Shown here piece after piece: positions 6,015 through 20,000 of a stretch of DNA of 20,000 bases. The position numbers and the translations under genes are program-made. Numbering within the stretch: position 1 is the stretch's first letter; every line of letters starts with the position of its first letter. The notes beneath the pieces are model-generated. The model was not told the origin of the DNA, did no database searches, and saw only the letters and a program-made list of their open reading frames with translations. Source of the stretch: an uncultured virus (IMG/VR IMGVR_UViG_3300030107_004497) (lineage: Duplodnaviria > Heunggongvirae > Uroviricota > Caudoviricetes > Crassvirales); IMG/VR virus record IMGVR_UViG_3300030107_004497; one strand, given 5' to 3'.

Positions 6015-6377
6015 ATGAAAAAATATAATGGTATTGGGAAATTATTTGTTAGCTGCGGGCTTGTTATTTTGTTTATGTTATTTTATAACACAACCTTTGG
6101 ACAAATTCAAGTAACGCATTTTAACGCCGGTTGGAATAGTTCTAACGATGTTTCTTGGGTAATGGATCTAGAGGATTGCAAAACTATAGGGCACACAGAT
6201 ATAGCTAAAGATACGAAAGCACAAGCAAAATACAAAATAGCAGTAGTACCTACTATTATAATATTTAAAGACGGCGAAGAGGTTGCTAGATTTCAAGCAG
6301 ATTTAAGTTTTAAAATGGTAGCAACTAAAGAAGAAGTACAAGAAGAAATAGATAATCAATTAATGAGCGATTTTTAA
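6015..6377 (+). CDS. Exported thioredoxin-fold protein lacking CXXC
   Basis: C-terminal half AKYKIAVVPTIIIFKDGEEVARF is a typical Trx cis-Pro/beta3-beta4 segment. The position of WCxxC reads HFNAGWNSSN. N-terminal hydrophobic signal ends TTFG|Q. Confidence 0.7.
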   Translation: MKKYNGIGKLFVSCGLVILFMLFYNTTFGQIQVTHFNAGWNSSNDVSWVMDLEDCKTIGHTDIAKDTKAQAKYKIAVVPTIIIFKDGEEVARFQADLSFKMVATKEEVQEEIDNQLMSDF

Positions 6378-8975
6378 ATGAAAAAGATTTTAATATTATT
6401 ATTATTACCAGTACTTACCCACGGGCAAGTTATAAATACTTTTCCTTGGACACATGACTTTGATAATAACATAGGATTAGAACAAGACACTAATGATTTT
6501 GGTGATTGGCTCTTGCATCAAGGAACAACAAGTTCTTTTAATACAGGACCAACAGGAGATCATACCACAGGTAATGGTATCTACTTTTATGTAGAGTCTT
6601 CTGGGCAAAACTACGGTGGTAAAGTTTTTACAATATACACACCAATGTTTGATATATCACAAACGCCTGGTAAAGTATTATCTTTTTGGTACCATATGTA
6701 CGGTGCGGCTATGGGCGATTTAGAAATAGGTGTACTAGACAGTGTTGGATATACAGCTTTAGATACTATATCTGGTGACCAAGGTAATAATTGGAAATTA
6801 GCTTATTATCCAATAACAACAAACACACCGTTTAAAATAAAGTTTAAAGCTGTAACTGGTTCTAGTTATACTAGTGATATATCTATAGACGACGTGATGA
6901 TTAGTGATCCGTATACAGTTATATATGGTTGTACTGATACTGTATCATCTAACTATGATTCAACAGCTACGCATGATAATGGTACGTGTATATATGTTAC
7001 AGGTTGTATTGATCCTAGTGCTACTAATTATAATCCATGGGCTAATGTAGATGATGGTAGTTGTATAATGGATATTGCCTGTAACGATTCTATAGAATCT
7101 TTAGTTAATGTGGCAATACTATTAGACAATTGGCCAGGTGAAACATCTTGGGAAATAAAAGCAAACGGAAACGTCATACATTCCGTTGCACAAGGTACTT
7201 ATAGTTACACACAAACAGGACAAACTGTACATACGCAAGTTTGCGTACCTATAGGTGACACAATAGTGTTTACAATTAATGATAGTTACGGGGATGGTAT
7301 TGGAGGTGGTTCTGTAGTTGGTAGTTGTTTAGTAACAAATATAGATTGTCAAGATACTTTATTTTTACTAAATCCACCAAACTTTGGTTATACAGCTTCT
7401 TCTAATCCTTATATATCTGATCAATGTAATAATGATACTATAATATATGGCTGTACAAACTCAAGTTATTTAGAGTATGATTCGCTTGCTACTGTTGATA
7501 ATGGTAATTGTATGACACTAGCTACTTATGGTTGTACTGATTCTACACAATTCAACTACGATCCAAATGCTGACCGCATGTTATTAACATCACCTTGCGA
7601 TTATGATTTAATATTATTTGATGATGGTGGTGATTCTTGGGGTAACTGTTGGTTAGGAGTTTCACAAGGAGATTCATTGTGGCAATTTAAAATTAGTAGT
7701 AATGGTATTTATTCTGATACATTTGCTTTAGAATTAAATTCTTATGATGAAGTATATTTTTATTATTTTGAAATACCTACACCTCAACAAAATCCACAAC
7801 AATTAGATATACAAACTATACAAAACTCTTTCAAACTAGAAAATAGTTACGGTGTAATTATACATGAGGGAAATAACCCTTGGCCTGGTCCAAATGAAAA
7901 TAAACTAAGACACTATGTAAGTGATTTAGATATATACGAAGCTCAACCTTATTGCGGCAATGAATGTATACCAGTTGTTACTGGCTGTATGGATACTTTA
8001 GCTTATAATTACAATCCACTAGCTAATACTAACACAGTGTGCTATTATAATCCTGGTTGTACTAATCCAGGTTATTTAGAATATTATACCCAAGGTTTTA
8101 CCGCTGGTATTGATGATGGTAGTTGTAATACTATAGCTGTGTTTGGTTGCATGGATCCTAACGCTTTTAATTATGACCCTACTGCTAATGTTAGTAATGG
8201 AGGTTGTGTACCAGTTATACTTGGTTGTATGAACGAGTTAGCATTTAATTACAATCCTAATGCTAATACTCCAGACACTTGTATACCTTTAATTTATGGA
8301 TGTACTGACCCAACTATGTTTAACTATTGTGATACTTGTAATACTGATGATGGTAGTTGTTTACCGTACGTATTTGGATGTACTGACTCAACAATGTTTA
8401 ATTTTAATCCATTAGCTAATGCTGACAACGGTTCTTGTATACCTTATATATATGGCTGCACGGATCCTTCTATGCTTAATTATAACTCACAAGCAAACAC
8501 GGAGGATTTTAGTTGTATTCCTTATGTTTATGGGTGTATGGATAGTTTGGCTCTTAACTATGATTCACTTGCTAACACGGATAACGGTTCGTGTATCGAA
8601 ATCATTATGGGTTGCATGGATCCAGGAGCGTATAACTACGAACCAATTGCTAATGTTAACGATACTTTATCTTGTTTATATAGTGCTGGTTGTGTTACTG
8701 GTGCAGGTATACCTTATTGGTTGAATGATCCTTGTTACGCATGGGTGATTGACGTAGATGAATACTGTTGTGAAAACGAATGGGATGAAATATGTCAACT
8801 AACTTATAATTACTGTGATAGCTCTTGGTCTGGACCTATACCAAAAAGAATTTTAAACAAAACATTAATATCTATTACAGATGTTTTAGGTAGACCAACA
8901 AAAGAAAATAAAAATAAACTTTTATTCTACTTATATAGCGATGGCACAGTGGAAAAGAAATTAATAAAAAAATAA
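6378..8975 (+). CDS. Secreted Cys-rich repeat protein: signal peptide + MAM-like domain + 13 GC[TMI][DN] repeats + T9SS-like C-terminal domain
   Basis: Signal MKKILILLLLPVLTHG|Q. MAM hallmarks TGPTGDHTTGNG.YFYVESS, LSFWYHMYG, GDQGNNW, DISIDDV. Repeats GCxD...NY...A..DDGSC. Tail LISITDVLGR...LFYLYSDGTVEKKLIKK. Confidence 0.8.
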   Translation: MKKILILLLLPVLTHGQVINTFPWTHDFDNNIGLEQDTNDFGDWLLHQGTTSSFNTGPTGDHTTGNGIYFYVESSGQNYGGKVFTIYTPMFDISQTPGKVLSFWYHMYGAAMGDLEIGVLDSVGYTALDTISGDQGNNWKLAYYPITTNTPFKIKFKAVTGSSYTSDISIDDVMISDPYTVIYGCTDTVSSNYDSTATHDNGTCIYVTGCIDPSATNYNPWANVDDGSCIMDIACNDSIESLVNVAILLDNWPGETSWEIKANGNVIHSVAQGTYSYTQTGQTVHTQVCVPIGDTIVFTINDSYGDGIGGGSVVGSCLVTNIDCQDTLFLLNPPNFGYTASSNPYISDQCNNDTIIYGCTNSSYLEYDSLATVDNGNCMTLATYGCTDSTQFNYDPNADRMLLTSPCDYDLILFDDGGDSWGNCWLGVSQGDSLWQFKISSNGIYSDTFALELNSYDEVYFYYFEIPTPQQNPQQLDIQTIQNSFKLENSYGVIIHEGNNPWPGPNENKLRHYVSDLDIYEAQPYCGNECIPVVTGCMDTLAYNYNPLANTNTVCYYNPGCTNPGYLEYYTQGFTAGIDDGSCNTIAVFGCMDPNAFNYDPTANVSNGGCVPVILGCMNELAFNYNPNANTPDTCIPLIYGCTDPTMFNYCDTCNTDDGSCLPYVFGCTDSTMFNFNPLANADNGSCIPYIYGCTDPSMLNYNSQANTEDFSCIPYVYGCMDSLALNYDSLANTDNGSCIEIIMGCMDPGAYNYEPIANVNDTLSCLYSAGCVTGAGIPYWLNDPCYAWVIDVDEYCCENEWDEICQLTYNYCDSSWSGPIPKRILNKTLISITDVLGRPTKENKNKLLFYLYSDGTVEKKLIKK
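6927..8675 (+). repeat. Coding repeats of about 25-27 aa (GC[TMI][DN]xxAxNY[DN]xxAxxD[DN]GSC), 13 copies; nine tandem at about 7983-8675
   Basis: Counted in the translation: GCTDT, GCIDP, GCTNS, GCTDS, GCMDT, GCTNP, GCMDP, GCMNE, GCTDP, GCTDS, GCTDP, GCMDS, GCMDP. DNA is diverged at synonymous sites. Confidence 0.9.
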
Positions 8976-8978
8976 AAC

Positions 8979-9416
8979 ATGGCAACATTAACAGCTTCTA
9001 AAATAACAGAATCAGGTCTTACTTCTAGCCCTACTACAGCAGCGGTAAGTGGAGATCAATTTAGAAATACAGGTGTTGAATTTTTACGTATTAGTAATTT
9101 TCATAGAACAAAAACGTATACTGTTAAAATTGAAGTTCAAAACTCATCAGTAGTACATCCACAATATGGACCAACTACTAAAAATCATATTTATAAAACT
9201 ATTGCTCCTCCTGGTAGTGGTGCTAGCGCCAACGTTGGTGAAGTTACAGCTTATTTTGGACCTTTTAAACCAAAAGCATTTAACGACGCTAACGGAATGG
9301 TTAAAATTTATTATAAAGATGGTAGTGTAGCTAGTGATACTGGTTTTTCTGGAGGATCAGCTATACCTTCTTCTAACGCATTGTTAGAAGTTGACGTAAT
9401 ATACTTAGATAATTAA
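8979..9416 (+). CDS. Putative virion structural protein (beta-rich, capsid-decoration-like)
   Basis: MATLT...GL...AA.SGDQF.N.G.EFL.I.N...GPF....FND..G.V.I.Y pattern resembles small phage virion beta-sandwich proteins. Ser/Thr/Ala/Gly-rich and located in the structural module. Confidence 0.55.
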   Translation: MATLTASKITESGLTSSPTTAAVSGDQFRNTGVEFLRISNFHRTKTYTVKIEVQNSSVVHPQYGPTTKNHIYKTIAPPGSGASANVGEVTAYFGPFKPKAFNDANGMVKIYYKDGSVASDTGFSGGSAIPSSNALLEVDVIYLDN

Positions 9417-9427
9417 AACAATAAAAA

Positions 9428-10177
9428 ATGGCAATAACAGCGGCAATCACCTTAACTAGTGCGGCAGGTGACTTAGTAACAGACGCACTATCGCTTTCTA
9501 CAAGTGCAAATTTAACAAAAGCTGGTACTTCAACAGCTATTGCTAATACTAGTGGTTTAGCTAGAAAAACAACATCATATGCTAGTTCAGGTGTTATAGA
9601 TACTGTAGTTCTTTATAGAGGGGACGACTATACTAACGATGGAGCTAACAAAATATATTTAAAAAATACTTCGTCTACAGCGGCAGAATATTTCACGGTT
9701 TATATGACTGGTGATAGAGCTACTGATGTACATACAAACGCAGACCCTGGTTTAACAGAATTAGGTAGATTGTATGCTGGAGACTGGGCGTTTTTTCCTT
9801 GGAATGCTAGTGGAGGAACAAAAGAACAGTTTACAGTAACTATCGCTAATACTTGGGCTTCTGGAGATACCTTCGCATTTGATGGTGTTACGGTTGTAGC
9901 TGCTGACTCCACAGTAAATAATATAGCAGCTCAAATTGATGCTGCTCAATACCCTAATTGGGTAACATCTGTTTCTGGAGCAGTAGTTACATTTGTAGCT
10001 AGATATAGTAATGCTGGTATAGAAATAGATACTTCAGAAGCTGTAAGCACAACAGCTGGTGATGGTACTGGAGCAGTAGCAACTACAGTAGAAGGAACAA
10101 AATCTGTTTCAGATATATATATAAAACCAAGTGTACATACTGATATGACAATAGAAAGTATGTTATTTTACGAATAA
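9428..10177 (+). CDS. Putative virion structural protein, paralog 1 (with about 100-aa inserted domain)
   Basis: Shares MAxTAxxTL, AGT, NKIYLKN, GRLYAGDWAFFPW and C-terminal ESMLFYE with the next two ORFs. Thr/Ala-rich. Confidence 0.7.
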   Translation: MAITAAITLTSAAGDLVTDALSLSTSANLTKAGTSTAIANTSGLARKTTSYASSGVIDTVVLYRGDDYTNDGANKIYLKNTSSTAAEYFTVYMTGDRATDVHTNADPGLTELGRLYAGDWAFFPWNASGGTKEQFTVTIANTWASGDTFAFDGVTVVAADSTVNNIAAQIDAAQYPNWVTSVSGAVVTFVARYSNAGIEIDTSEAVSTTAGDGTGAVATTVEGTKSVSDIYIKPSVHTDMTIESMLFYE

Positions 10178-11070: not shown

Positions 11071-11526
11071 ATGATAAGCGAGCACATTTCTTATCGTGAG
11101 GGCGTGTATAGCACAACAGCAACCCGCCTTGGAATTGATAACACTCCTAATGATGAGCAGCTAGAAAATATGGAATTAGTTGCCGAGGAAGTATTTGAAC
11201 CGCTTAGAGCTTATGTTGGTGGACCTATTAAAATTAATAGTTTTTTTAGGTCACCAAAGCTTAATACAGCTATTGGTGGATCTAGCAAGTCTCAACATTG
11301 TAAAGGTCAAGCTATAGATATTGATGATACATTCGGTAGAGCTACAAATGCCGAAATGTATCATTGGATAAAAGAAAACCTAGAGTTTGATCAAATGATA
11401 TGGGAGTTTGGTGATGATGATAATCCTAATTGGGTACATGTTAGTTATGTCTCCAAAGAAGATAATAGAAATAGATGTTTAAAAGCATATAAAGAAAATG
11501 GTAAAACTAAATATATGGTAATATGA
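11071..11526 (+). CDS. Peptidase M15 family Zn-peptidase (probable endolysin)
   Basis: INSFFRSPKLNTAIGGSSKSQHCKGQAIDI (R, SxH, D ligands) and WVHVSY (third Zn ligand) match the M15A/M15_3 pattern. Confidence 0.9.
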   Translation: MISEHISYREGVYSTTATRLGIDNTPNDEQLENMELVAEEVFEPLRAYVGGPIKINSFFRSPKLNTAIGGSSKSQHCKGQAIDIDDTFGRATNAEMYHWIKENLEFDQMIWEFGDDDNPNWVHVSYVSKEDNRNRCLKAYKENGKTKYMVI

Positions 11527-12282: not shown

Positions 12283-12477
12283 TTAGAATTGTCTGTTCTT
12301 TTGATCTTGAACCTCAATCCTGACTTCCTGTGCTAGTGATTTAACTAGTTGCATAGCTTTTCTAACTCTCGTTCCTGCAGAGTTATTTCCCTCTACAAAC
12401 TTCGTTACATCAGCTTGACAGTCATTAACAGCATCTTGTAGATCGTCAAACAATCCGTTTAATTTATTAAAACTCAT
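12283..12477 (-). CDS. Histone H1-like Hc1-family small protein (short form, no Lys-rich tail)
   Basis: KFVEGNNSAGTRVRKAMQLVKSLAQEVRIEV matches the GNxxAGTRxRK helical-hairpin signature of Hc1-like proteins of Chlamydia/Bacteroidota. Confidence 0.75.
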   Translation of the reverse strand: MSFNKLNGLFDDLQDAVNDCQADVTKFVEGNNSAGTRVRKAMQLVKSLAQEVRIEVQDQKNRQF

Positions 12478-12509
12478 AATTTAATTTAATTTAATTGTTT
12501 ATATTTAAT

Positions 12510-12755
12510 TTACTTTTTGCTGCATTCTTTTTTACAGTCCATAAAGAAGTACATAACAAATACTAAAGCCACTAGACCTACAAAACCTGCATTGCCTAAA
12601 GCGTTTATCATTGCCATGAAGTTACCTATAATATCCATACCAAATATTACTTCTCCTGTTAATAGACTCCATAAAATTGTTACCGGAATAATATGGATCA
12701 TTATTGTTACTAATCCACCAAAAAATCCCGAAAAATAATTCATTACTTTTTCCAT
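12510..12755 (-). CDS. Small inner-membrane protein (2-3 hydrophobic segments)
   Basis: FFGGLVTIMIHIIPVTILWSLL and AGFVGLVALVFVMYFF helices, basic C-terminus, A-rich leader. Confidence 0.65.
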   Translation of the reverse strand: MEKVMNYFSGFFGGLVTIMIHIIPVTILWSLLTGEVIFGMDIIGNFMAMINALGNAGFVGLVALVFVMYFFMDCKKECSKK

Positions 12756-12777
12756 TGTTTATTTTTTTAGTTAATAA

Positions 12778-13197
12778 TTAAAGTTTATAAGATATACTTA
12801 GGTTAAAGCTTCCTTCTCTTTCACCATTAGCATCTTCTTCTAAAGGCATTGTGATATTTGGATCAATATATAGTTTATCCCATAAGTTAAAGGAATAACC
12901 TAATCCTAAATCCATTCTATCAATTAACTCTTTAGTTTCATCGTTATAATTATATACACATGTAGCCCAAACTCCTGACTTGTGTACAACATAACGTGCT
13001 ATAAACTCGTACTCATCGTCTCCATCCATTGTAACACCAATCATCGCGCAGTCATTTAAATTGTAACCAAATCCAATTTTTTCTGTAAGCGACCAAGCTG
13101 AATCAGCAGTTTCAGTAAGTGTTGTTAACACTGAAAACTGGGCAGATGCAATCATCGTACTAAAAGCCAAAGCCATTGTTAAAAATAATTTGTTCAT
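12778..13197 (-). CDS. Small exported outer-membrane beta-barrel-like protein
   Basis: Signal MNKLFLTMALAFSTMIASA|Q. Amphipathic strands IGFGYNL, YEFIARY, LGLGYSF, LYIDPN and C-terminal FNLSISYKL. Confidence 0.7.
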   Translation of the reverse strand: MNKLFLTMALAFSTMIASAQFSVLTTLTETADSAWSLTEKIGFGYNLNDCAMIGVTMDGDDEYEFIARYVVHKSGVWATCVYNYNDETKELIDRMDLGLGYSFNLWDKLYIDPNITMPLEEDANGEREGSFNLSISYKL

Positions 13198-13212
13198 AAA
13201 TAGTTGTTTTAA

Positions 13213-15087
13213 TTATAAGCCTGTTATTTCACAAGATCCACCGGCACAGGCTAACTCACCAGATAGATTTGTTTCGTCAGTTTCTTCAATGATATTAGAC
13301 AAGTCTATTTCATTTAAAGACTTAACTCTTTTACTAAACTCTGTTTTTGTAATATCTTCAAACGGAGCTTGAGTATACGTTCCACCATCATAAGGTAAAA
13401 CTGATAAACCATTATAACACTCTCTATTTTCCCACATCCACTCACCAGCTTTTTTCCAATCACCTTCTTTTAAACTAATTGTTGCAGACACATTGTGAGT
13501 ATTGGATCCTTTACGGTGTCCAGGTTTAACCCATTCGGTAGCAACTTTTTTAACTCTTTTAAGTAAGTCAAAAGCAGACTCAGTTCTTAATATTGAACCT
13601 TTTGGAGCTGATTGTGGTATTTCAATAACAGCAGTATCATGTGGTCTAAAGTATTCGTCCTGTATTAAATCAGGATTATTTTTCTTTAAGTAACTATATA
13701 TAGGTTCATTTTTACCTACACGTAGTCTACGTATATAATAATCATTATGCCAAGCGTGGATACCTGAAGATGTACCAAGTACTAATGAAGTTGTTCCAGC
13801 TGGTTTAACACAAGTAGTTCTAGCTGCTTTGTTTATTCCTATTAACTTTGCTACTCTTGTGTTTTCTCTTTTTACTATACTTGCAGCTGCCTTCATATCC
13901 AGCGGGAGCACAGCGGCACTCCCTATTCCTGTCATTGACACACCTATAAGCGCGTCTTTCTCTGTTGTTTCTTGCCATATTTCTCTTAGATAGTGGAATT
14001 CCGTATAACCTGCTTGAAGCGTGCCAATAAAAGCCGCAGCTTTCACTCTATTATTTAGCTCTTCTTGGCTTGTGACGTCACTTACATTAACTTCGCACAA
14101 GTTACAGAACTGATATGGGCGTAAAGCTATTTCACAACAAGGATTAGTACCCCAATCTTTATCGTGATTAAAATATATACCAGGCTCACCAGCTCCGGAT
14201 AATTCAATACGTTTCCACAAATCTAAGAAAAACTCTTTTGTTATTTTATGTCTCATTAATACAGCAGAATTGTTAGCTCTACCTCTTTGTGGGTTTGTTT
14301 CCCACCAACTACCTGATTTACAGGATATCATTTCCTCATCATACGCGCTAAATAGCGATATAAGCGCGGCTCTTCGGATTCCTCCAGCAAGAACAGCATC
14401 TGCAATGTGGCAGATAATATCATGGACTTCAAGCGTTGTAAGTTGTACGCCATCTTCTTTTGCATCTAATATTCCTTTAATTTTTACTAAACATTCTTTT
14501 AATGGTTGTGGCCCTGGAGCTTTTCCCCCTGAGGTCACAAGTCTTGCTCCCTTTGGTCTAATATCCGAATAATCAAATTTTATCTTAGATGATCTCTTAG
14601 AGCCCAAATAAGACTTAATTAAAACCTTTACAGCATCTGACCAACCTTCAATACTATCACCAATAACAAATCTCCGTGTTCTTCCTTGAAAAGGTTTAGT
14701 TACATGAGGGAGTTTTTGTACGTGATGATTCTGCACTGAATAACCAACTCCGCAGCCAGATAAAAGCAAAAACATGCACTCACTAAAGCTATCAGTATGA
14801 TCAATAGGTAAATAACTACAGTTGTACAATCTGTTGGGAGATATCTCAATAGGTTTCCCGCTAAATTGTAACGAACGCATAGACGGTAAAACTTTCTTAT
14901 CATAAACGTATTTATAAGTTAATTGTATTTGATCTGTTAATTTTGGATATCTTTTTTGATGCATTTCCTTATTTCTCGTGACTAGTTCCTCCCAAGTTTC
15001 TCTTCTATTTAACTCAGGTATAAACTTAGCATACTTCATGTAGACTGTTAAGTCCGAAAGTATTTTTTTATTTACATCTTTATTCAT
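13213..15087 (-). CDS. nrdJ: Class II (adenosylcobalamin-dependent) ribonucleotide reductase
   Basis: LPSMRSLQF, YNCSY, GCGVGYS, GGIRRAALI, active-site TNPCCEI, CNLCEVN, KPAGTTS, and C-terminal redox tail ELACAGGSCEI. No nrdB-like small subunit is adjacent. Confidence 0.9.
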   Translation of the reverse strand: MNKDVNKKILSDLTVYMKYAKFIPELNRRETWEELVTRNKEMHQKRYPKLTDQIQLTYKYVYDKKVLPSMRSLQFSGKPIEISPNRLYNCSYLPIDHTDSFSECMFLLLSGCGVGYSVQNHHVQKLPHVTKPFQGRTRRFVIGDSIEGWSDAVKVLIKSYLGSKRSSKIKFDYSDIRPKGARLVTSGGKAPGPQPLKECLVKIKGILDAKEDGVQLTTLEVHDIICHIADAVLAGGIRRAALISLFSAYDEEMISCKSGSWWETNPQRGRANNSAVLMRHKITKEFFLDLWKRIELSGAGEPGIYFNHDKDWGTNPCCEIALRPYQFCNLCEVNVSDVTSQEELNNRVKAAAFIGTLQAGYTEFHYLREIWQETTEKDALIGVSMTGIGSAAVLPLDMKAAASIVKRENTRVAKLIGINKAARTTCVKPAGTTSLVLGTSSGIHAWHNDYYIRRLRVGKNEPIYSYLKKNNPDLIQDEYFRPHDTAVIEIPQSAPKGSILRTESAFDLLKRVKKVATEWVKPGHRKGSNTHNVSATISLKEGDWKKAGEWMWENRECYNGLSVLPYDGGTYTQAPFEDITKTEFSKRVKSLNEIDLSNIIEETDETNLSGELACAGGSCEITGL

Positions 15088-15220
15088 AAGTTGTTAAACA
15101 AATGTCAGCAAAAGGAATATAAATAACGTGATTTGTTTTTAATTCTTCTTTATATGTTCTAAAGCCTAATAATATTCCGGGATAAAAACCGAAACTTAAT
15201 TCCCAATCATTTTTTCTCAT
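15080..15220 (-). CDS. 46-aa hypothetical protein (MRKNDWELSFGFYPGILLGFRTYKEELKTNHVIYIPFADICLTTYE), not in the ORF track
   Basis: Read by hand. Fills the gap between the endonuclease stop (15222) and the nrdJ start, and its stop overlaps the nrdJ 5' end. Confidence 0.6.
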   Translation of the reverse strand: MRKNDWELSFGFYPGILLGFRTYKEELKTNHVIYIPFADICLTTYE

Positions 15221-15221
15221 A

Positions 15222-15668
15222 TTATTTATTTTTATTTAATATTAATTCTATTACTTTGTCACATTCCTTCTGGTTTTGAGGTTTATATAAAGTTACATGT
15301 TTCATCTTATGATTTACATATTTTTTAAACATTTTCCAACGTATTGGGAAGCTTTCGTTAGCTCTACCTTTACATTCAATTATAAATGAATCACTTACAA
15401 AATCAGGCGTATATTTAATTGGTAATATCTTTTTACAACCTCTATTTACCATCTCACCTTTACCATTGCTTTGTCTTTCATAACTTTCGTTTTCAAACTG
15501 AAAACCTTCTTGTAAAGTAAACGTACACCCTTCGTATACAGCGTGTATTTTAGCTTTCTTTAATGCTTGATACATATAACGTTCTAAACCTGAAGCAAAT
15601 TGTATCCCGTCGAATGTGACTTTTTTTGCTCTAACAGGACCACGTTTGCGTTTATATTTCTTCTTCAT
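15222..15668 (-). CDS. PD-(D/E)XK nuclease, T7 endonuclease I-like (resolvase/host DNA degradation)
   Basis: FASGLE...ALKKAKI...YE...YTPDFV...IIECKG matches the T7 gp3-like pattern (FRSGLE/YTPDF/ETKG). Start placed at MKKKYKR (15668) rather than 15710. Confidence 0.8.
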   Translation of the reverse strand: MKKKYKRKRGPVRAKKVTFDGIQFASGLERYMYQALKKAKIHAVYEGCTFTLQEGFQFENESYERQSNGKGEMVNRGCKKILPIKYTPDFVSDSFIIECKGRANESFPIRWKMFKKYVNHKMKHVTLYKPQNQKECDKVIELILNKNK

Positions 15669-16002
15669 CGTCGTAATAAGATTCACGGTTATAATCAACA
15701 TAATTATCATCCCTATGTCTATCTATTAACGCTTCTTCAGATAAGTCTTGCAACTCTTCGCGTGCAGCTTGTATATATAATATTGCATCCATTAATTCTT
15801 CTTGAACATCATTTAAATACTTAGTCAAGCCTTTCATTTTAAGTCTACGTTCATCATCTAATGTTGACCCATATTTTTCAAAACCAATATCTGATCTCTC
15901 AACAAATTTATCTACAACGTGTCTAACCACTGGGTCTCTAAACCCATATGATTTTCTTGAATCTATACCATTTTTGGCATCCATAATTTCTCTACTACTC
16001 AT
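15652..16002 (-). CDS. Hypothetical phage protein, possible all-alpha NTP pyrophosphatase-like
   Basis: RSDIGFEKYGSTLD...YLNDVQEELMDAILY carries an acidic EExxD helix. It neighbours the MazG-domain gene. Confidence 0.5.
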   Translation of the reverse strand: MSSREIMDAKNGIDSRKSYGFRDPVVRHVVDKFVERSDIGFEKYGSTLDDERRLKMKGLTKYLNDVQEELMDAILYIQAAREELQDLSEEALIDRHRDDNYVDYNRESYYDDEEEI

Positions 16003-16004
16003 AA

Positions 16005-16844
16005 TTAATCTTTTTTAAATGTTCCATTACTCATTTTACCTGTTCTATCTTTTATTTCGTTGTATGCTTGTGCTATACACTCTTCTATTGACGTGCCACA
16101 GAGATGCGCTAAATTAGTTAATACAACTACACAATCACCAATACCATCTATAATTTCTGGTTCATCTTTTTTAAGCACAGCTCTACATATTTCGCCAGCT
16201 TCTTCCATGAGTTTTAATGTTTGTGTTTTAGGATCACCTTTATGATACAATCCTCTTTCTTCAGCCCAAGTTCTAATTAAATCAAAATGACTTGCTTTTC
16301 CATTAGACTTTCTACCATCAGCGCCAACTGGAAACAAACCTCCAGTTCTAGGATACTCATCTCTTACGTGTAAATCTGCTAAAGTCTTATAAGCATCGTT
16401 ATTGTCAAACCACCTAGCAAATGCTTTGTTATATATATAACATCTTTCTGGATTGTACTTAGAGGTTACTACATTTTTCATTATCCATTTTATAGACTCC
16501 TTAGTAATAATACAGCTTCCGTGTTCTGTCTCCCATTTCATATTTTTATTATCCATAAGTTGTCCTTTTAGTTTATTAATAGGACATGGAAATGTTGTTG
16601 TTTGTTCTGTTACGTTTATATTCATGTTATTAAATTTAAGTTCATTATAAGGTACTTCGTCTACTTTGTAGCCGTAGCACTTTTGCATTATTATTTCACC
16701 TTTTGATATAAAATCTATATCATCAGATGTTTCTATTATTTCGTATTCACCTGGATAATAACCTTGTTGCTTGTGAACACGCTCTTCAAGATTAGTTGTT
16801 ACACCAATCTTTTTTCCTGGTATATGATATATATAATATGTCAT
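16005..16844 (-). CDS. Fusion: N-terminal GIY-YIG-like domain + unknown middle + C-terminal MazG-like nucleotide pyrophosphohydrolase
   Basis: N-term YYIYHIPGKKIGVTTNLEERVHKQ...YEIIE...E. C-term IRTWAEERGL...QTLKLMEEAGEI...IIDGIGDCVVVL...AYNEIKDRTG carries the MazG EExxE/DxxxD motif. Confidence 0.75.
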   Translation of the reverse strand: MTYYIYHIPGKKIGVTTNLEERVHKQQGYYPGEYEIIETSDDIDFISKGEIIMQKCYGYKVDEVPYNELKFNNMNINVTEQTTTFPCPINKLKGQLMDNKNMKWETEHGSCIITKESIKWIMKNVVTSKYNPERCYIYNKAFARWFDNNDAYKTLADLHVRDEYPRTGGLFPVGADGRKSNGKASHFDLIRTWAEERGLYHKGDPKTQTLKLMEEAGEICRAVLKKDEPEIIDGIGDCVVVLTNLAHLCGTSIEECIAQAYNEIKDRTGKMSNGTFKKD

Positions 16845-17497
16845 ATTTTATCATTATATAAATGCATGTTATGCGCAAAATGATAATATACACCATTGTT
16901 AATATTTAGTTTTTTTGCAACCATAGCTTGTAACATTGAAAAACAATATTGATCATTACAAAAACCATACCATAAATCATTTGAACGCATAGTCACGCAC
17001 ATTTCTAATCTATTATTTATTATTGTAAATTGTACAGCGTAAGTACATGGTGTATCATGACTATAATCATCAATCTCTTTACCGTCATATATAGATATTG
17101 CACATTGTCTGTTGTCAGGATTGTCTTGTAACATTTGTATTACTCTATCTAGTTGACCATTACGCTCCCATTGGTAACCATAGTTAGAGTTTACATTGCC
17201 TTTACCATCAGCCATACGTTTCCATATCTCAGGCACTTTACCATATATATCTCCTAATGTATTTATATTAGGATCACCAGTTAAATACCATTGCCATTCA
17301 GCTTCAGCGTAATCTTGCTTCCAAGCTCTTTCTCTATTTATTATTTTATTATCTGTAGGGTTTGTTATATAAAAACCCACATTAAATAAAGCTTTTGTAT
17401 CACCAAAACTTACCCCTTCTTGTAATATTTTATCGTGTAAATACTCATAAGCTTCATTTGCATTCCTAAATATTTTATTATTTATTGTATTTATCAT
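16841..17497 (-). CDS. Thymidylate-synthase-fold pyrimidine-modifying enzyme, dCMP hydroxymethylase (T4 gp42)-like
   Basis: NSNYG, catalytic DTPCT, MRSNDLWYGFCND and HNMHLY. The residue equivalent to E. coli ThyA Asn177 is Asp. Confidence 0.8.
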   Translation of the reverse strand: MINTINNKIFRNANEAYEYLHDKILQEGVSFGDTKALFNVGFYITNPTDNKIINRERAWKQDYAEAEWQWYLTGDPNINTLGDIYGKVPEIWKRMADGKGNVNSNYGYQWERNGQLDRVIQMLQDNPDNRQCAISIYDGKEIDDYSHDTPCTYAVQFTIINNRLEMCVTMRSNDLWYGFCNDQYCFSMLQAMVAKKLNINNGVYYHFAHNMHLYNDKI

Positions 17498-17504
17498 GTT
17501 TTTA

Positions 17505-17783
17505 TTATCCTTTATCGTTTGTATTTGGTTTGTAATAGTGTTTATAATATTCTAAAAACTTATCATAAACATTTTCGTCTTCATATTTACCTGGGTCTGT
17601 GTGTGTTTTATTATTTATATGTATATCTATTTTCCACCGATTCATATCATCTTTCCAATCAGGATGTATACTTACGCTAACACCTCTGTTTATACACCAA
17701 CCAATCATTTTTATTTCTTCTGGACTCCAACTTCTTGTAGGTGGCTTTTTACTTGGTGATTTTTGCCATCTTTTAAAAGCCAT
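17505..17783 (-). CDS. Hypothetical protein
   Basis: 92-aa ORF with TAATG overlap to the primase-helicase stop, in operon orientation. Confidence 0.65.
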   Translation of the reverse strand: MAFKRWQKSPSKKPPTRSWSPEEIKMIGWCINRGVSVSIHPDWKDDMNRWKIDIHINNKTHTDPGKYEDENVYDKFLEYYKHYYKPNTNDKG

Positions 17784-19498
17784 TATGATTCCCAGGGCAT
17801 TGGTTCACCGTCTTCAACTAATGTTTCGTGCGGTATAAAACTACCAGATCTAGGCTCCCAAGTAAAATGAGCTTCAGCTCCATTTTCACCTAAATTTTGA
17901 AATTTAACTTTAAGCACTTTAACTTTTGTTGTTTTTGCTTCGTAGTCTCTATGTACCAATAATCCATGGTAACTAGCATCGTACCATTCACCACCTCCTT
18001 TGATATTGTACATTGTTGGTTCTTCAATTTTTCCATCTTGTGTTTTATACATTTTAGTTGGATGTGCTACAATAAATGTAAGTACATCATATTTTTTACA
18101 AAAAGCTTCTATTTTAGCTAAATAATCCATAGTATAACGATTCACATCATCTGATTTAGCATCTACATCTCTAATTTTATTAAATGGATCAAGTACTAAA
18201 CATTTAATACCTTTACGCTTAACTAATTCAGCACCTTTACGTAACACGGCTTCTAAGCTATATTTATCCATATCAATAAAAAAATAATTATCATTAACAT
18301 GATTAGTTACTTGCTGCCATTTATCATTACCAATATCATCTGTTCTAGGCATATCTTGCCAATGTTTACGCATTAGTTTATGAGCATGTAAATATACCGG
18401 TTGATTTTCTGGACTTGCATACGCAGTTTTCCAACCATAGTTATTGTTATAACCAACAACCATTTGATCAACAAAGTCAGACTTACCAGAACTAGGAATA
18501 CCAGTAACAGTAATAAACTGACCAGTGTAAGTACTAAATATTTTATCAAAGTTTTTAAGTCCAATTTGATAACCGGGTTTAAAACCGTTTTTAACAAAGT
18601 CTCTAAGCTCATCTTCTACATCTTTTAATGTTGATACGTTTTCTAATGGTACAGGTCGCGCGGTATGTATAGCATCACGCAGTGATTCAGCGCCATGTTC
18701 TAATAAATAGTCGTTAGCATCTTTATTACCGTTAAAATCTATTATATAACAGACTTCAGCACCAAGACGTCTAACAAGCTCACGTTGCAACATTTGACCA
18801 GGTTCATCAGCATCAACAGCTAATATAATTCTAGTCTTATCATCAAAATAATCTATACAATTATCTAAGTAATCAAGATTATTATTGTTTAATGTAGCAC
18901 CATTGGGTACTGATATTGCATTTGGTACTCCAGCTTCATGTAATGCTAACACATCCATTTCGCCTTCAACTATAACACAAGTATCATAACCTACAATACT
19001 ATTAATATTATAAAATACTTTTTCAGCACCTTTAAATAACTTAAAGTTTTTTCTACCATCTCTGTATTTTACGTTAATCAATTGATCACCCATAAAATAA
19101 TTGAACTGAATAGTATTCTCTTGTTTACCTGTCTGAGGCATAAACTCAGGACCTTCAGAAACCTGAAGATCTCTAAGTGTTTGTTTTGATATACCTCTTG
19201 TACCGAACCATGTTTCAACATTCGTACTTACCTCGTTAAAGTTGGCCGGCGTTTCCGGTCTAACATAGACACGTTCGCTACTGCCCTTGCGTTGATAAGT
19301 ATGAAGTTGAAAAGTAGTATTACAGTTGTGACAAGTACCGAGACCACGTTCCCAATCATAGCTAGCACATTGTGCTTTCTGGTTCTTAGGTTTCCTAGTA
19401 TGCGAACACAGAGGACAAACCCCCTGTGTTGCATTTTCTTTTAGGCTATGTTGATTGAATTTATCAATCAAAAATCCATTGATCTCCTCTACACTCAT
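17783..19498 (-). CDS. Bifunctional DNA primase-helicase (T7 gp4/Twinkle-like)
   Basis: Zn ribbon CPLC...CHNC. TOPRIM motifs IVEGEMD, DADEPG, KDAND. SF4 helicase Walker A TGIPSSGKS, Walker B LVLDP, and IVAHP. Confidence 0.93.
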   Translation of the reverse strand: MSVEEINGFLIDKFNQHSLKENATQGVCPLCSHTRKPKNQKAQCASYDWERGLGTCHNCNTTFQLHTYQRKGSSERVYVRPETPANFNEVSTNVETWFGTRGISKQTLRDLQVSEGPEFMPQTGKQENTIQFNYFMGDQLINVKYRDGRKNFKLFKGAEKVFYNINSIVGYDTCVIVEGEMDVLALHEAGVPNAISVPNGATLNNNNLDYLDNCIDYFDDKTRIILAVDADEPGQMLQRELVRRLGAEVCYIIDFNGNKDANDYLLEHGAESLRDAIHTARPVPLENVSTLKDVEDELRDFVKNGFKPGYQIGLKNFDKIFSTYTGQFITVTGIPSSGKSDFVDQMVVGYNNNYGWKTAYASPENQPVYLHAHKLMRKHWQDMPRTDDIGNDKWQQVTNHVNDNYFFIDMDKYSLEAVLRKGAELVKRKGIKCLVLDPFNKIRDVDAKSDDVNRYTMDYLAKIEAFCKKYDVLTFIVAHPTKMYKTQDGKIEEPTMYNIKGGGEWYDASYHGLLVHRDYEAKTTKVKVLKVKFQNLGENGAEAHFTWEPRSGSFIPHETLVEDGEPMPWES

Positions 19499-19804
19499 CT
19501 AAAACGGTAAGTCATCCGCTGGAGCAGCTGGCGCTGCTTGAGCAGGAGCACCATCACGTGGCGCTGGTTCAACATTAGTTCCGTTACTCCAAACTACTTT
19601 TACATTTCCTAAGTAAGTCTTAGGTGCTTTCGCATCTCTTTCTTCTTTAGTTTGTTCTACAACTACAGGACCTTGATTTCCGAATTGATCTAATTCATCA
19701 TTCAAAGTAATTGTAATTGGTAAGTATTTACCTTTTTTACCTATAAAGATTTTGTCTTTAGGTATTTCGTTAAGATTAATACTTGCTTTAATAATACTTG
19801 CCAT
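19499..19804 (-). CDS. Probable single-stranded DNA-binding protein
   Basis: About 80-aa beta-rich core, then a Pro/Ala linker and acidic DDLPF C-terminal tip. Directly upstream of the primase-helicase. Confidence 0.7.
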   Translation of the reverse strand: MASIIKASINLNEIPKDKIFIGKKGKYLPITITLNDELDQFGNQGPVVVEQTKEERDAKAPKTYLGNVKVVWSNGTNVEPAPRDGAPAQAAPAAPADDLPF

Positions 19805-19972
19805 TTAATAATTATTTATTTGGTTAAACATTCTTGTTAATTGCTCTTTAGTTGCACCAGTGTTTCTTCTCATATTATCTACAGCTTTAACATGGTTTTG
19901 GTTTGCGTAGAAATTATTAACACTAGTTTTAATTCCTGTTACAGAACATACTTTTGATTTTGTTCTTGCCAT
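19805..19972 (-). CDS. 55-aa basic hypothetical protein (MARTKSKVCSVTG...QINNY), not in the ORF track
   Basis: Read by hand. ATG at 19972 with an AT-rich leader, and its TAA abuts the SSB ATG. Confidence 0.6.
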   Translation of the reverse strand: MARTKSKVCSVTGIKTSVNNFYANQNHVKAVDNMRRNTGATKEQLTRMFNQINNY

Positions 19973-20000
19973 AATTAATTGGTTTAAAGGGTTTTGCTTA

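Follow-up and report, generated by a model that had tools for sequence, protein, structure and literature searches.

A predicted dCMP hydroxymethylase and a nuclease-like/MazG fusion protein are inherited as a pair in uncultured marine phages

Modifying deoxycytidine monophosphate (dCMP) while removing deoxycytidine triphosphate (dCTP) is the textbook logic of bacteriophage T4. If an uncultured phage encodes a relative of the T4 dCMP hydroxymethylase immediately before a gene that fuses a nuclease-like domain to a MazG-type pyrophosphatase, do these two genes act together, and how far does the functional unit extend into the neighbouring genes? This question is raised by a 20,000-nucleotide stretch of viral DNA (IMG/VR record IMGVR_UViG_3300030107_004497; about 32% G+C), referred to here as the window, in which all open reading frames (ORFs) of the locus form one minus-strand operon. 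The initial annotation had proposed that four of them, encoding a gp42-like enzyme, a GIY-YIG-like/MazG fusion, a protein with an EExxD motif and an endonuclease I-like nuclease, constitute a cassette that modifies the phage's own cytosine, purges dCTP and cuts unmodified DNA. Our analysis retains the core pair of this model, but not the four-gene device for cutting unmodified DNA. On balance, we consider it probable that a hydroxymethylase of the thymidylate synthase (TS) family and a fusion protein acting as a dCTPase form a coupled unit in the replication operon of a flavobacterial phage, and that the neighbours are general phage genes. The pair is laid out as follows.

16841-17497, minus strand: 218-amino-acid TS homolog (PF00303, E 1.4e-27), predicted dCMP hydroxymethylase (5-hydroxymethyl-dCMP, or 5hm-dCMP, synthase)
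16005-16844, minus strand: 279-amino-acid fusion protein, whole (T5orf172/GIY-YIG-type domain, middle domain, linker, MazG domain)
16650-16844, minus strand: fusion residues 1-65, T5orf172-type GIY-YIG-superfamily domain (model fold, invariant residues, profile matches of relatives)
16395-16649, minus strand: fusion residues 66-150, conserved alpha/beta middle domain (confident model, invariant residues)
16290-16394, minus strand: fusion residues 151-185, variable disordered linker (low model confidence, length varies)
16005-16289, minus strand: fusion residues 186-279 and stop, MazG-type all-alpha nucleoside triphosphate (NTP) pyrophosphatase domain (PF03819, fold), predicted dCTP pyrophosphatase

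The product of the first gene belongs to the TS family, matching Pfam PF00303 with 97 bits (cut-off 24.3). Its best matches in the PDB are the CMP hydroxymethylase MilA (E 1.4e-17) and T4 gp42 (E 1.6e-17, 27% identity), with true thymidylate synthases ranking below. What would such an enzyme make? In the available text of Lee et al. (NAR 2026; PMC13326640), which uses E. coli ThyA numbering, N177D is associated with a preference for dCMP, L143D/E accompanies a hydroxymethyl and not a methyl product, Leu143 being linked to methyl, and D169N distinguishes the recently discovered 5-hydroxy-dCMP synthases. The corresponding residues of the window homolog are D148 (L143D), C151 (C146, the catalytic Cys), D174 (D169, kept) and D182 (N177D). 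C151 is invariant in alignments of 15 and of 24 sequences; D148 stands three residues ahead of it, as in the 'DFMC' of T4 gp42, and D182 aligns with gp42 D179. D174 is likewise invariant, and the Asn of the 5-hydroxy-dCMP synthases is absent. The protein terminates in 'HLYNDKI', at position 214 of the 266 profile positions and about seven residues past the His of the HLY motif, and the whole C-terminal segment of ThyA is therefore missing. Neither Asn177 nor a segment after HLY, which together define a canonical ThyA, is present. In a set of 127 TS frames (the window and 126 loci), all 126 that cover the ThyA-177 column have Asp there and none has Asn; the 'DCDD' signature together with the short form was found in 121/127, five being of the long form and one truncated at the last column. 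The combination of Asp at L143, C146 and D169 kept, and Asp at N177 points to a 5hm-dCMP synthase, and the initial call of a gp42-like, Asp-type TS thus agrees with the full published residue signature of these enzymes. Judging from the same residues, modified cytosine is probably present in the phage DNA.

A frameshift that would link the TS homolog with the fusion gene was considered and rejected, as the short form and the ATGA junction between the two genes are conserved and the fusion starts with its own domain. Each of the five complete relatives that served for whole-genome checks (G001-G005, 64-71 kb) has exactly one TS-family gene. The closest cultured relative of the TS homolog (46% identity) is found in Bacteroides phage BF486P2 (L001), which carries two Asp-type TS homologs (6171-6932 and 9004-9684) around a dUTPase gene; the MazG fusion was not found in the 18.6 kb of this phage that were examined.

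The second gene encodes a protein whose AlphaFold model, built from 27 sequences, has a mean predicted local distance difference test (pLDDT) score of 84.6 and falls into four parts. Residues 3-56 form a beta-beta-alpha-beta-alpha unit (E3-8, E12-16, H19-26, E35-40, H43-56; pLDDT 88-94), residues 82-149 a second alpha/beta domain and residues 186-279 a helical domain, while residues 153-182, with pLDDT below 50, are a disordered linker that varies in length and contains Cys-rich inserts in some relatives. The helical part is a MazG domain: PF03819 matches residues 206-267 with 29.8 bits (cut-off 22) and all 27 relatives, and PRA-PH matches 26/27 fusion proteins. Its fold matches MazG, HisE, DCTPP1, RS21-C6 and the MazZ of phage S-2L, with structural scores of Z 10.2 for 1yvw (root-mean-square deviation 2.9, 82 residues aligned) and Z 9.0 for 7ODY, the S-2L MazZ (2.7, 90 aligned). 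E214, E215, E218, D233 and D237 are invariant in the 27 sequences and, by analogy, are predicted to bind metal.

The N-terminal part required the relatives for its assignment to a family. In the window protein, the T5orf172 profile reaches only 15 bits over residues 5-38, under the cut-off of 20. Among the relatives, T5orf172 matches 18/27 (best E 4.9e-5), MUG113 13/27 and GIY-YIG 2/27. The GIY-YIG core, a beta-beta-alpha-beta-alpha fold with Tyr, Arg and Glu, is present in the model, its Y6, R22 and E50 being invariant along with Y3, K12 and G14. These profile matches, the model fold and the MazG profile all agree with the GIY-YIG-like/MazG fusion that had been called initially. The N domain probably belongs to the GIY-YIG clan (T5orf172 branch) and is predicted to be nuclease-like. 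That a T5orf172 domain can be a working nuclease is described for ICP1 Gp88 (Odn) in the consulted part of the report on that protein (PMC8263062). The N domain showed no significant relation to T4 EndoII (DenA), with an hhalign probability of 0.8% and only a 12-residue motif, 'IG-T-NL--R' (12 columns), aligned. The middle domain has invariant residues of its own (T79, T82, T84, F85, S128, Y138 and N139 in 27 sequences); no family was found for it, and Atlas scores of up to 0.79 are at chance level, so that the T5orf172 and SegE clusters retrieved count only as leads.

A profile of the N and middle domains together retrieved 1211 cluster representatives at E<=0.001. Twenty of these, chosen for having no MazG match, were scanned: 5/20 bear NUMOD1 or I-HmuI-NUMOD DNA-binding modules, 4/20 are fused to fragments of other, unrelated genes (C5 DNA methylase, PcrB and, with scores below cut-off, peptidase M20 and DsbA), one has T5orf172 alone and 10/20 gave no match. 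Such modules and such joins are a pattern typical of homing-endonuclease families, and by this sequence pattern we place the fused nuclease-like domain in a family of the homing-endonuclease type. In the lineage of the window, the module is fixed and is as constrained as the MazG domain. The median ratio of nonsynonymous to synonymous substitution rates (dN/dS) has the same value in the N, middle and MazG domains (0.22) and reaches about 1.2 in the linker, figures that are rough, since dS is saturated and only 161-311 of the 351 pairs were usable. None of the 1181 matching records from cultured phages covers 80% of the fusion, and none of these phages has the full-length architecture. Fold searches with the whole model returned MazG-domain matches only. 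Our literature search (titles and abstracts) found no published description of a T5orf172 and MazG fusion and no published account of a phage arrangement of dCMP hydroxymethylase and MazG. A separate observation concerns a protein of 5539 residues (P0181) that contains at least 31 tandem stretches matching positions 28-90 of the fusion profile, a region that runs from the last part of the N domain into the first part of the middle domain.

Do the two genes behave as a unit? In the window, the TS stop codon and the fusion start codon overlap as ATGA at 16844-16841, as read directly from the sequence and as annotated from the start (16841-16844). After deduplication of loci with identical TS and fusion frames, 105 unique loci remained. 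The TS homolog and the N-domain fusion are encoded together in 101 of them, four have the TS homolog only and none has the fusion only. In 96/101 loci the fusion frame begins ahead of the point where the TS frame ends, or no more than 100 nt beyond it. The co-occurrence check named in the initial annotation therefore passes, every fusion locus with upstream sequence having an Asp-type TS. Of the four TS-only loci, one is too short to judge (L090), one is cut by the contig end (L151), one has a variant arrangement (L155) and one is a real absence (L083). In the variant (L155:5447-7369), genes for a DUF6378 protein and a short Asp-type TS are followed by one for a dCMP deaminase and by a stand-alone MazG gene that lacks the nuclease-like module. 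No locus was seen in which a MazG of the fusion type stands behind an Asp-type TS with the N and middle module free alongside. The TS homolog and the fusion are the only pair in the operon that behaves as a unit: they are translationally coupled and co-inherited.

Two groups of relatives give comparatively independent evidence on this pair. In a sister clade (L045-L049 and G004), the gene ahead of the fusion encodes a full-length ThyA (L046:5122-5994, L049:5198-6004, G004:C1:7683-8483), about 46-47% identical to ordinary phage ThyA, which keeps Leu143 and the C-terminus and has Asp at 177 ('LPYD' versus the 'VPFN' of a solved TS). From these residues it is predicted to be a dCMP methylase, and the DNA would hence contain 5-methylcytosine. 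With the same fusion behind a methylase-type ThyA, the partner protein stays while the cytosine-modifying enzyme changes type. The pair also exists in a second phage lineage with another replication module (L119:2349-6002, L139:2104-5154), directly after genes for a DUF6378 protein, a protein weakly similar to T4 beta-glucosyltransferase (E 2.2e-4, below cut-off), a 302-residue protein and a protein resembling pyridoxal phosphate (PLP) enzymes (32.2 bits, cut-off 35). This gene group looks like a candidate cluster for hypermodification of hydroxymethylcytosine (hmC). In L119, a separate SegE-type GIY-YIG gene lies near the pair.

The mechanism that we propose starts from the MazG domain, which would convert dCTP to dCMP and pyrophosphate, as suggested by its linkage to the TS homolog and by the precedents of S-2L MazZ and of T4 gp56, which the T4 record annotates as converting dCTP to dCMP. 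This hydrolysis would lower the canonical dCTP pool and at the same time feed the hydroxymethylase, which, going by its residues, would turn dCMP into 5-hydroxymethyl-dCMP. Where a ribonucleotide reductase (RNR) of the ribonucleoside triphosphate reductase (RTPR) type is present, it would produce dCTP without an intermediate step, consistent with a requirement for a dCTPase. Host or unrecognised kinases would then phosphorylate the 5hm-dCMP to its triphosphate, which would be incorporated into phage DNA. The T5orf172 and middle module would descend from a nuclease of the homing-endonuclease type that has been kept under selection.

Several observations weigh against this proposal. The MazG fold matches dCTPases and non-dCTPases alike, and substrate preference is unreadable from the sequence. 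Compared with T4 gp56, the fusion MazG gives an hhalign probability of 1.3%; gp56 matches PF08761 (dUTPase_2), which is not among the families matched by the fusion proteins. In the MetaGPA virome study (eLife 2021, PMC8670742), supplementary table 2 as available does not list Pfam MazG as significantly enriched on modified-cytosine contigs (5 vs 226), and MazG-like is missing altogether from the selected contigs (0 vs 64). The closest stand-alone MazG loci (44-53% identity) have a TS-family frame in 0/30 cases within the flanks examined, from which it follows that the fused form is what accompanies Asp-type TS genes, a third comparatively independent observation. The absence in L083, a 4.5-kb contig with a TS homolog and no fusion downstream, is a further point, and most of the co-occurrence comes from one viral lineage, so that shared descent and synteny make it weak as independent evidence. 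The main argument against full replacement of cytosine is that the route from hm-dCMP to hm-dCTP is missing. No T4-type deoxynucleoside monophosphate (dNMP) kinase (PF21448) was found at E<=1 in any of the five complete relatives, and scans of 43 + 47 ORFs of G001 recognised neither a kinase nor a glycosyltransferase; these scans found an exonuclease, Erf, a sigma-70-like factor, DenV, an ATP-dependent ligase, GroEL/ES, Hc1, a SET domain and SNase (a staphylococcal-nuclease homolog). A DNA polymerase of family A, the one family searched for, was found in 0/5 complete relatives, and a host polymerase would have to accept the modified nucleotide.

How far does the unit extend beyond the pair? 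The remaining genes of the operon are the following.

19499-19804, minus strand: small ORF resembling single-stranded DNA-binding protein (SSB), the first gene listed in the operon
17783-19498, minus strand: T7-type primase-helicase (Toprim and DnaB-like Pfam matches; phrog_239, E 1.1e-86)
17505-17783, minus strand: conserved ORF of 92 amino acids, no family, between the primase-helicase and the TS homolog
15652-16002, minus strand: p116, helical protein of 116 amino acids with an invariant QEExMD (helical hairpin model)
15222-15668 (ORF to 15710), minus strand: DUF1064 nuclease of the PD-(D/E)xK type, probable junction resolvase (PF06356, phrog_190)
15080-15220, minus strand: conserved ORF of 46 amino acids between the DUF1064 gene and the RNR gene, no family match
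13213-15087, minus strand: class II (B12) RNR of 624 amino acids, monomeric RTPR type (TIGR02505, PDB 1L1L), an accessory neighbour

The genes from primase-helicase to RNR are where the initial annotation had placed them; its four cassette genes stand, to which the two small conserved ORFs of 92 and 46 amino acids, missing from its list, have to be added. By tblastn these two are kept at the same positions in many relatives, and Pfam and PHROG scans gave no family match for either. The gap between the fusion and p116 is 2 nt, again read from the sequence, and the likely DUF1064 start, ATG 15668, gives a 17-nt overlap with the end of p116. The gene order is repeated in about 100 related viral contigs, so that the arrangement is not due to chance.

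The EExxD motif noticed initially in p116 is real, Q67, E68, E69, M71 and D72 being invariant in 26 sequences, and p116 is modelled as a helical hairpin (pLDDT 70.7). The suggestion that p116 is a second pyrophosphatase found no support in any detectable relation to MazG, to gp56 or to a known fold: the hhalign probability was 1.6% against the fusion alignment, in a comparison of shallow alignments (effective number of sequences about 2.5), and 0.4% against T4 gp56, equally with shallow alignments. Against the DUF6378 proteins of L119, L139 and L155 it was 2.7% over 19 columns, though the helix 'E(E/D)xLxDAxxY' is similar. There was no PDB profile match below E 0.5 and no Foldseek match, Pfam scans of 26 members gave nothing consistent, and Atlas returned only unnamed viral clusters. 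At least 7999 metagenome homologs were found (8000 scored) and, among the matches listed, all are unnamed or hypothetical save for one odd source label.

The next gene encodes a member of the DUF1064 family (PF06356, 43.8 bits, cut-off 24.7), labelled 'Holliday junction resolvase' in PHROGs (phrog_190, E 1.4e-15), in whose sequence 'PDF...ECK' is readable; a sequence search of the PDB, which includes the solved endonuclease I, gave no match at E<=1. Downstream of the fusion, p116 is found in 83/84 loci with enough DNA and DUF1064 in 84/84. Both have homologs in elemoC, a cultured Flavobacterium phage (Elemovirus) with a terminase and a primase-helicase of the same type as the window lineage: gp04 is a DUF1064 protein 40% identical to that of the window (E 1e-27), and the C-terminal half of gp89 (L175:4794-5261) matches the p116 profile (E 4.7e-16). 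This phage encodes a different, stand-alone NTP pyrophosphatase, and a TS-family frame was not found in the 15.5 kb of it that were examined. Neither gene is therefore tied to the TS homolog. The best explanation, drawn from these sequence comparisons, is that p116 and DUF1064 are general replication or recombination genes of the phage group and not parts of a modification device, and the dedicated four-gene cassette of the initial annotation is not borne out. As an aside, gp89 of elemoC bears the annotation 'ABC-type histidine transport system, ATPase component', a label that looks wrong given its match to the p116 profile.

Nor is the RNR a constant member of a cassette, as it adjoins the module in only 41/77 loci. 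It matches the TIGR02505 RTPR profile with E 1.1e-84 and 285 bits, below the cut-off of 340, and its best PDB match is the ribonucleoside triphosphate reductase 1L1L (9.8e-42), compared with 1e-4 for the NDP-type NrdJ. The copy in the window is intact. In G001, the RNR (51156-53023; L167:11156-13023) consists of two overlapping ORFs, 51156-51914 and 51887-53023, a split that may reflect either a frameshift or a mistake in assembly.

Could the neighbours and the nuclease-like domain nevertheless be parts of one device? In its full form, this explanation holds that the TS homolog modifies cytosine, that MazG and p116 purge dCTP and that the fused domain and/or DUF1064 destroy unmodified (host) DNA, in parallel to T4 gp42, gp56 and EndoII. 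The tight packing of the genes in one operon, the regular presence of p116 and DUF1064 after the fusion, the invariant Y6, R22 and E50 of a GIY-YIG-like domain under purifying selection, and the nuclease precedent of ICP1 Gp88/Odn, as given in the accessible part of PMC8263062, speak in its favour. Against it stand the elemoC homologs of DUF1064 and the p116 domain, the missing links of p116 to MazG, gp56 or any fold and of the N domain to EndoII, and the pairs in L119 and L139, which have neither p116 nor DUF1064 in the stretch examined. In addition, the MetaGPA data available to us show no enrichment of DUF1064 (4 vs 82) or T5orf172 (3 vs 159) in modified-cytosine contigs, with a corrected p of 1 (PMC8670742). 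We regard the full device as improbable. A reduced version, in which the T5orf172-middle-MazG protein is a single-polypeptide enzyme of cytosine exclusion, its domesticated nuclease cutting the unmodified-cytosine DNA of the host or of competing phages while tied to the dCTPase that supplies the hydroxymethylase, would amount to a two-gene, T4-style replacement without a kinase or polymerase of the phage's own, and is quite unlikely too. A different possibility, which we think unlikely, is that the N and middle domains are an intronless Seg-type homing endonuclease fused to the MazG gene, serving its own spread or marker exclusion and having no role in nucleotide metabolism or host-DNA breakdown. 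The NUMOD modules and gene joins among the MazG-less representatives (5/20 and 4/20) and the separate SegE-type gene of L119 agree with this, as does T4 itself, in which the GIY-YIG gene segF adjoins the dCTPase gene 56 and SegF cuts gene 56 of T2. Homing genes, however, have a patchy distribution and decay, whereas this module is fused in 101/105 unique loci at 45-85% protein identity, is as constrained as MazG (dN/dS 0.22 in both) and is in no locus free beside this MazG behind an Asp-type TS.

The reading of a hydroxymethylase coupled to a dCTPase could also fail at the chemistry of its first enzyme. The TS homolog might make 5-methyl-dCMP or 5-hydroxy-dCMP, or use CMP like MilA, with MazG as an unrelated house-cleaning NTPase. 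MilA and T4 gp42 score equally well, phages that lack a TS gene commonly have a stand-alone MazG, and TS homologs of similar signature unexpectedly made 5-hydroxy-dCMP according to the available text of PMC13326640. The 5-hydroxy-dCMP synthases described there as tested have D169N, whereas D169 is kept here; position 143 is Asp and not the methyl-linked Leu, and the context of a replication operon argues for a deoxynucleotide. Furthermore, since the sister clade keeps L143 and the full ThyA C-terminus, the two TS forms look like distinct enzymes. We therefore hold another product to be a doubtful alternative, and prefer the coupled hydroxymethylase and dCTPase.

The source of the window is an uncultured marine phage with Flavobacteria-type hosts. 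The closest cultured match of its primase-helicase is in Cellulophaga phage phi10:1 (41%). The complete relative G001 (71,276 bp) shares about 80-82% nucleotide identity with the window over 12284-20000, and its large terminase matches 87 phage records, 86 of which are Flavobacterium, Cellulophaga, Tenacibaculum or Maribacter phages and one a Caudoviricetes record. Relatives of the TS homolog occur in at least 528 IMG/VR stretches (of 534 matching a pattern). Elsewhere in the window, a 64-residue histone H1-like protein of the Hc1 type (12283-12477, minus strand; PF07432, E 5.4e-19) has its gene directly downstream of that for the RNR, and G001 has this gene too; an 865-residue protein (6378-8975, plus strand) that begins with a MAM domain (E 2.5e-23) probably serves as a tail or receptor-binding protein; and a peptidase M15 gene (11071-11526, plus strand) likely encodes an endolysin.

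What is new, and what would follow from it? The T4 logic was already known, and virome work had connected TS with MazG-like domains. What is added here is the very short form of the hydroxymethylase, a fixed fusion between a homing-endonuclease-type module and a pyrophosphatase, the swap of hydroxymethylase-type and methylase-type enzymes in one slot, and the apparent absence of both a kinase and a polymerase of the phage's own. If the proposed reading is true, a very common ocean phage group of Flavobacteria-type hosts replaces or decorates its cytosine. Modified cytosine would affect escape from restriction and CRISPR, with effects on library preparation for marine viromes, on sequencing bias and on host-range models. 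The lineage offers a natural experiment, with a hydroxymethylase-type or a methylase-type enzyme in one slot beside the same partner protein, and the fusion is a directly testable case of nuclease domestication.

One of the closest known systems is the T4 hmC pathway, with gp42 as dCMP hydroxymethylase, gp56 as dCTPase/dUTPase, gp1 as dNMP kinase, and EndoII (DenA). The window has a TS-fold enzyme with the Cys, L143D, D169 and N177D, an all-alpha NTP pyrophosphatase encoded beside it and a probable GIY-YIG-superfamily domain. Unlike gp42, the TS homolog has no sequence past the HLY motif and is only 27% identical; unlike gp56, the pyrophosphatase belongs to the MazG/PRA-PH class and not to dUTPase_2, and is fused to a nuclease-like module, which itself lacks a significant link to DenA. 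There is no DNMK kinase in the five complete relatives, and no glucosyltransferase was recognised in G001. The likeness to T4 is thus one of analogy, not orthology. A second group for comparison are the dCMP methyltransferases of the ThyA N177D type, known from phage Xp12. They are paralleled by the full-length ThyA of the sister clade, with N177D, L143 kept and the same slot, and differ from the window homolog, whose L143D and missing C-terminal segment predict a hydroxymethyl product.

In the Z-cluster of phage S-2L (PurZ, MazZ, DatZ), too, a MazG-like enzyme beside a base-replacing enzyme supplies the monophosphate from a canonical deoxynucleotide; there it concerns purines (dGTP to dGMP to dZ), in the window pyrimidines. 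In the accessible text of the report on MazZ, this enzyme supplies dGMP to PurZ and 'undergoes frequent N-terminal fusions' (PMC8342488). The MetaGPA contigs with modified cytosine show TS together with MazG-like PRA-PH domains, and supplementary table 2 of that study gives both Thymidylat_synt (109 vs 303) and PRA-PH (50 vs 179) as enriched; the T5orf172 fusion is not named, and T5orf172 is not enriched, in the material available from it (PMC8670742). Finally, ICP1 Gp88 (Odn) and the Seg-type homing endonucleases combine a T5orf172 domain with a second, probably targeting, module, as far as the consulted part of PMC8263062 describes them, and relatives of the window module carry NUMOD modules. 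Unlike in either of these, the predicted nuclease module of the window has an NTP pyrophosphatase as its fusion partner and is fixed throughout a large lineage.

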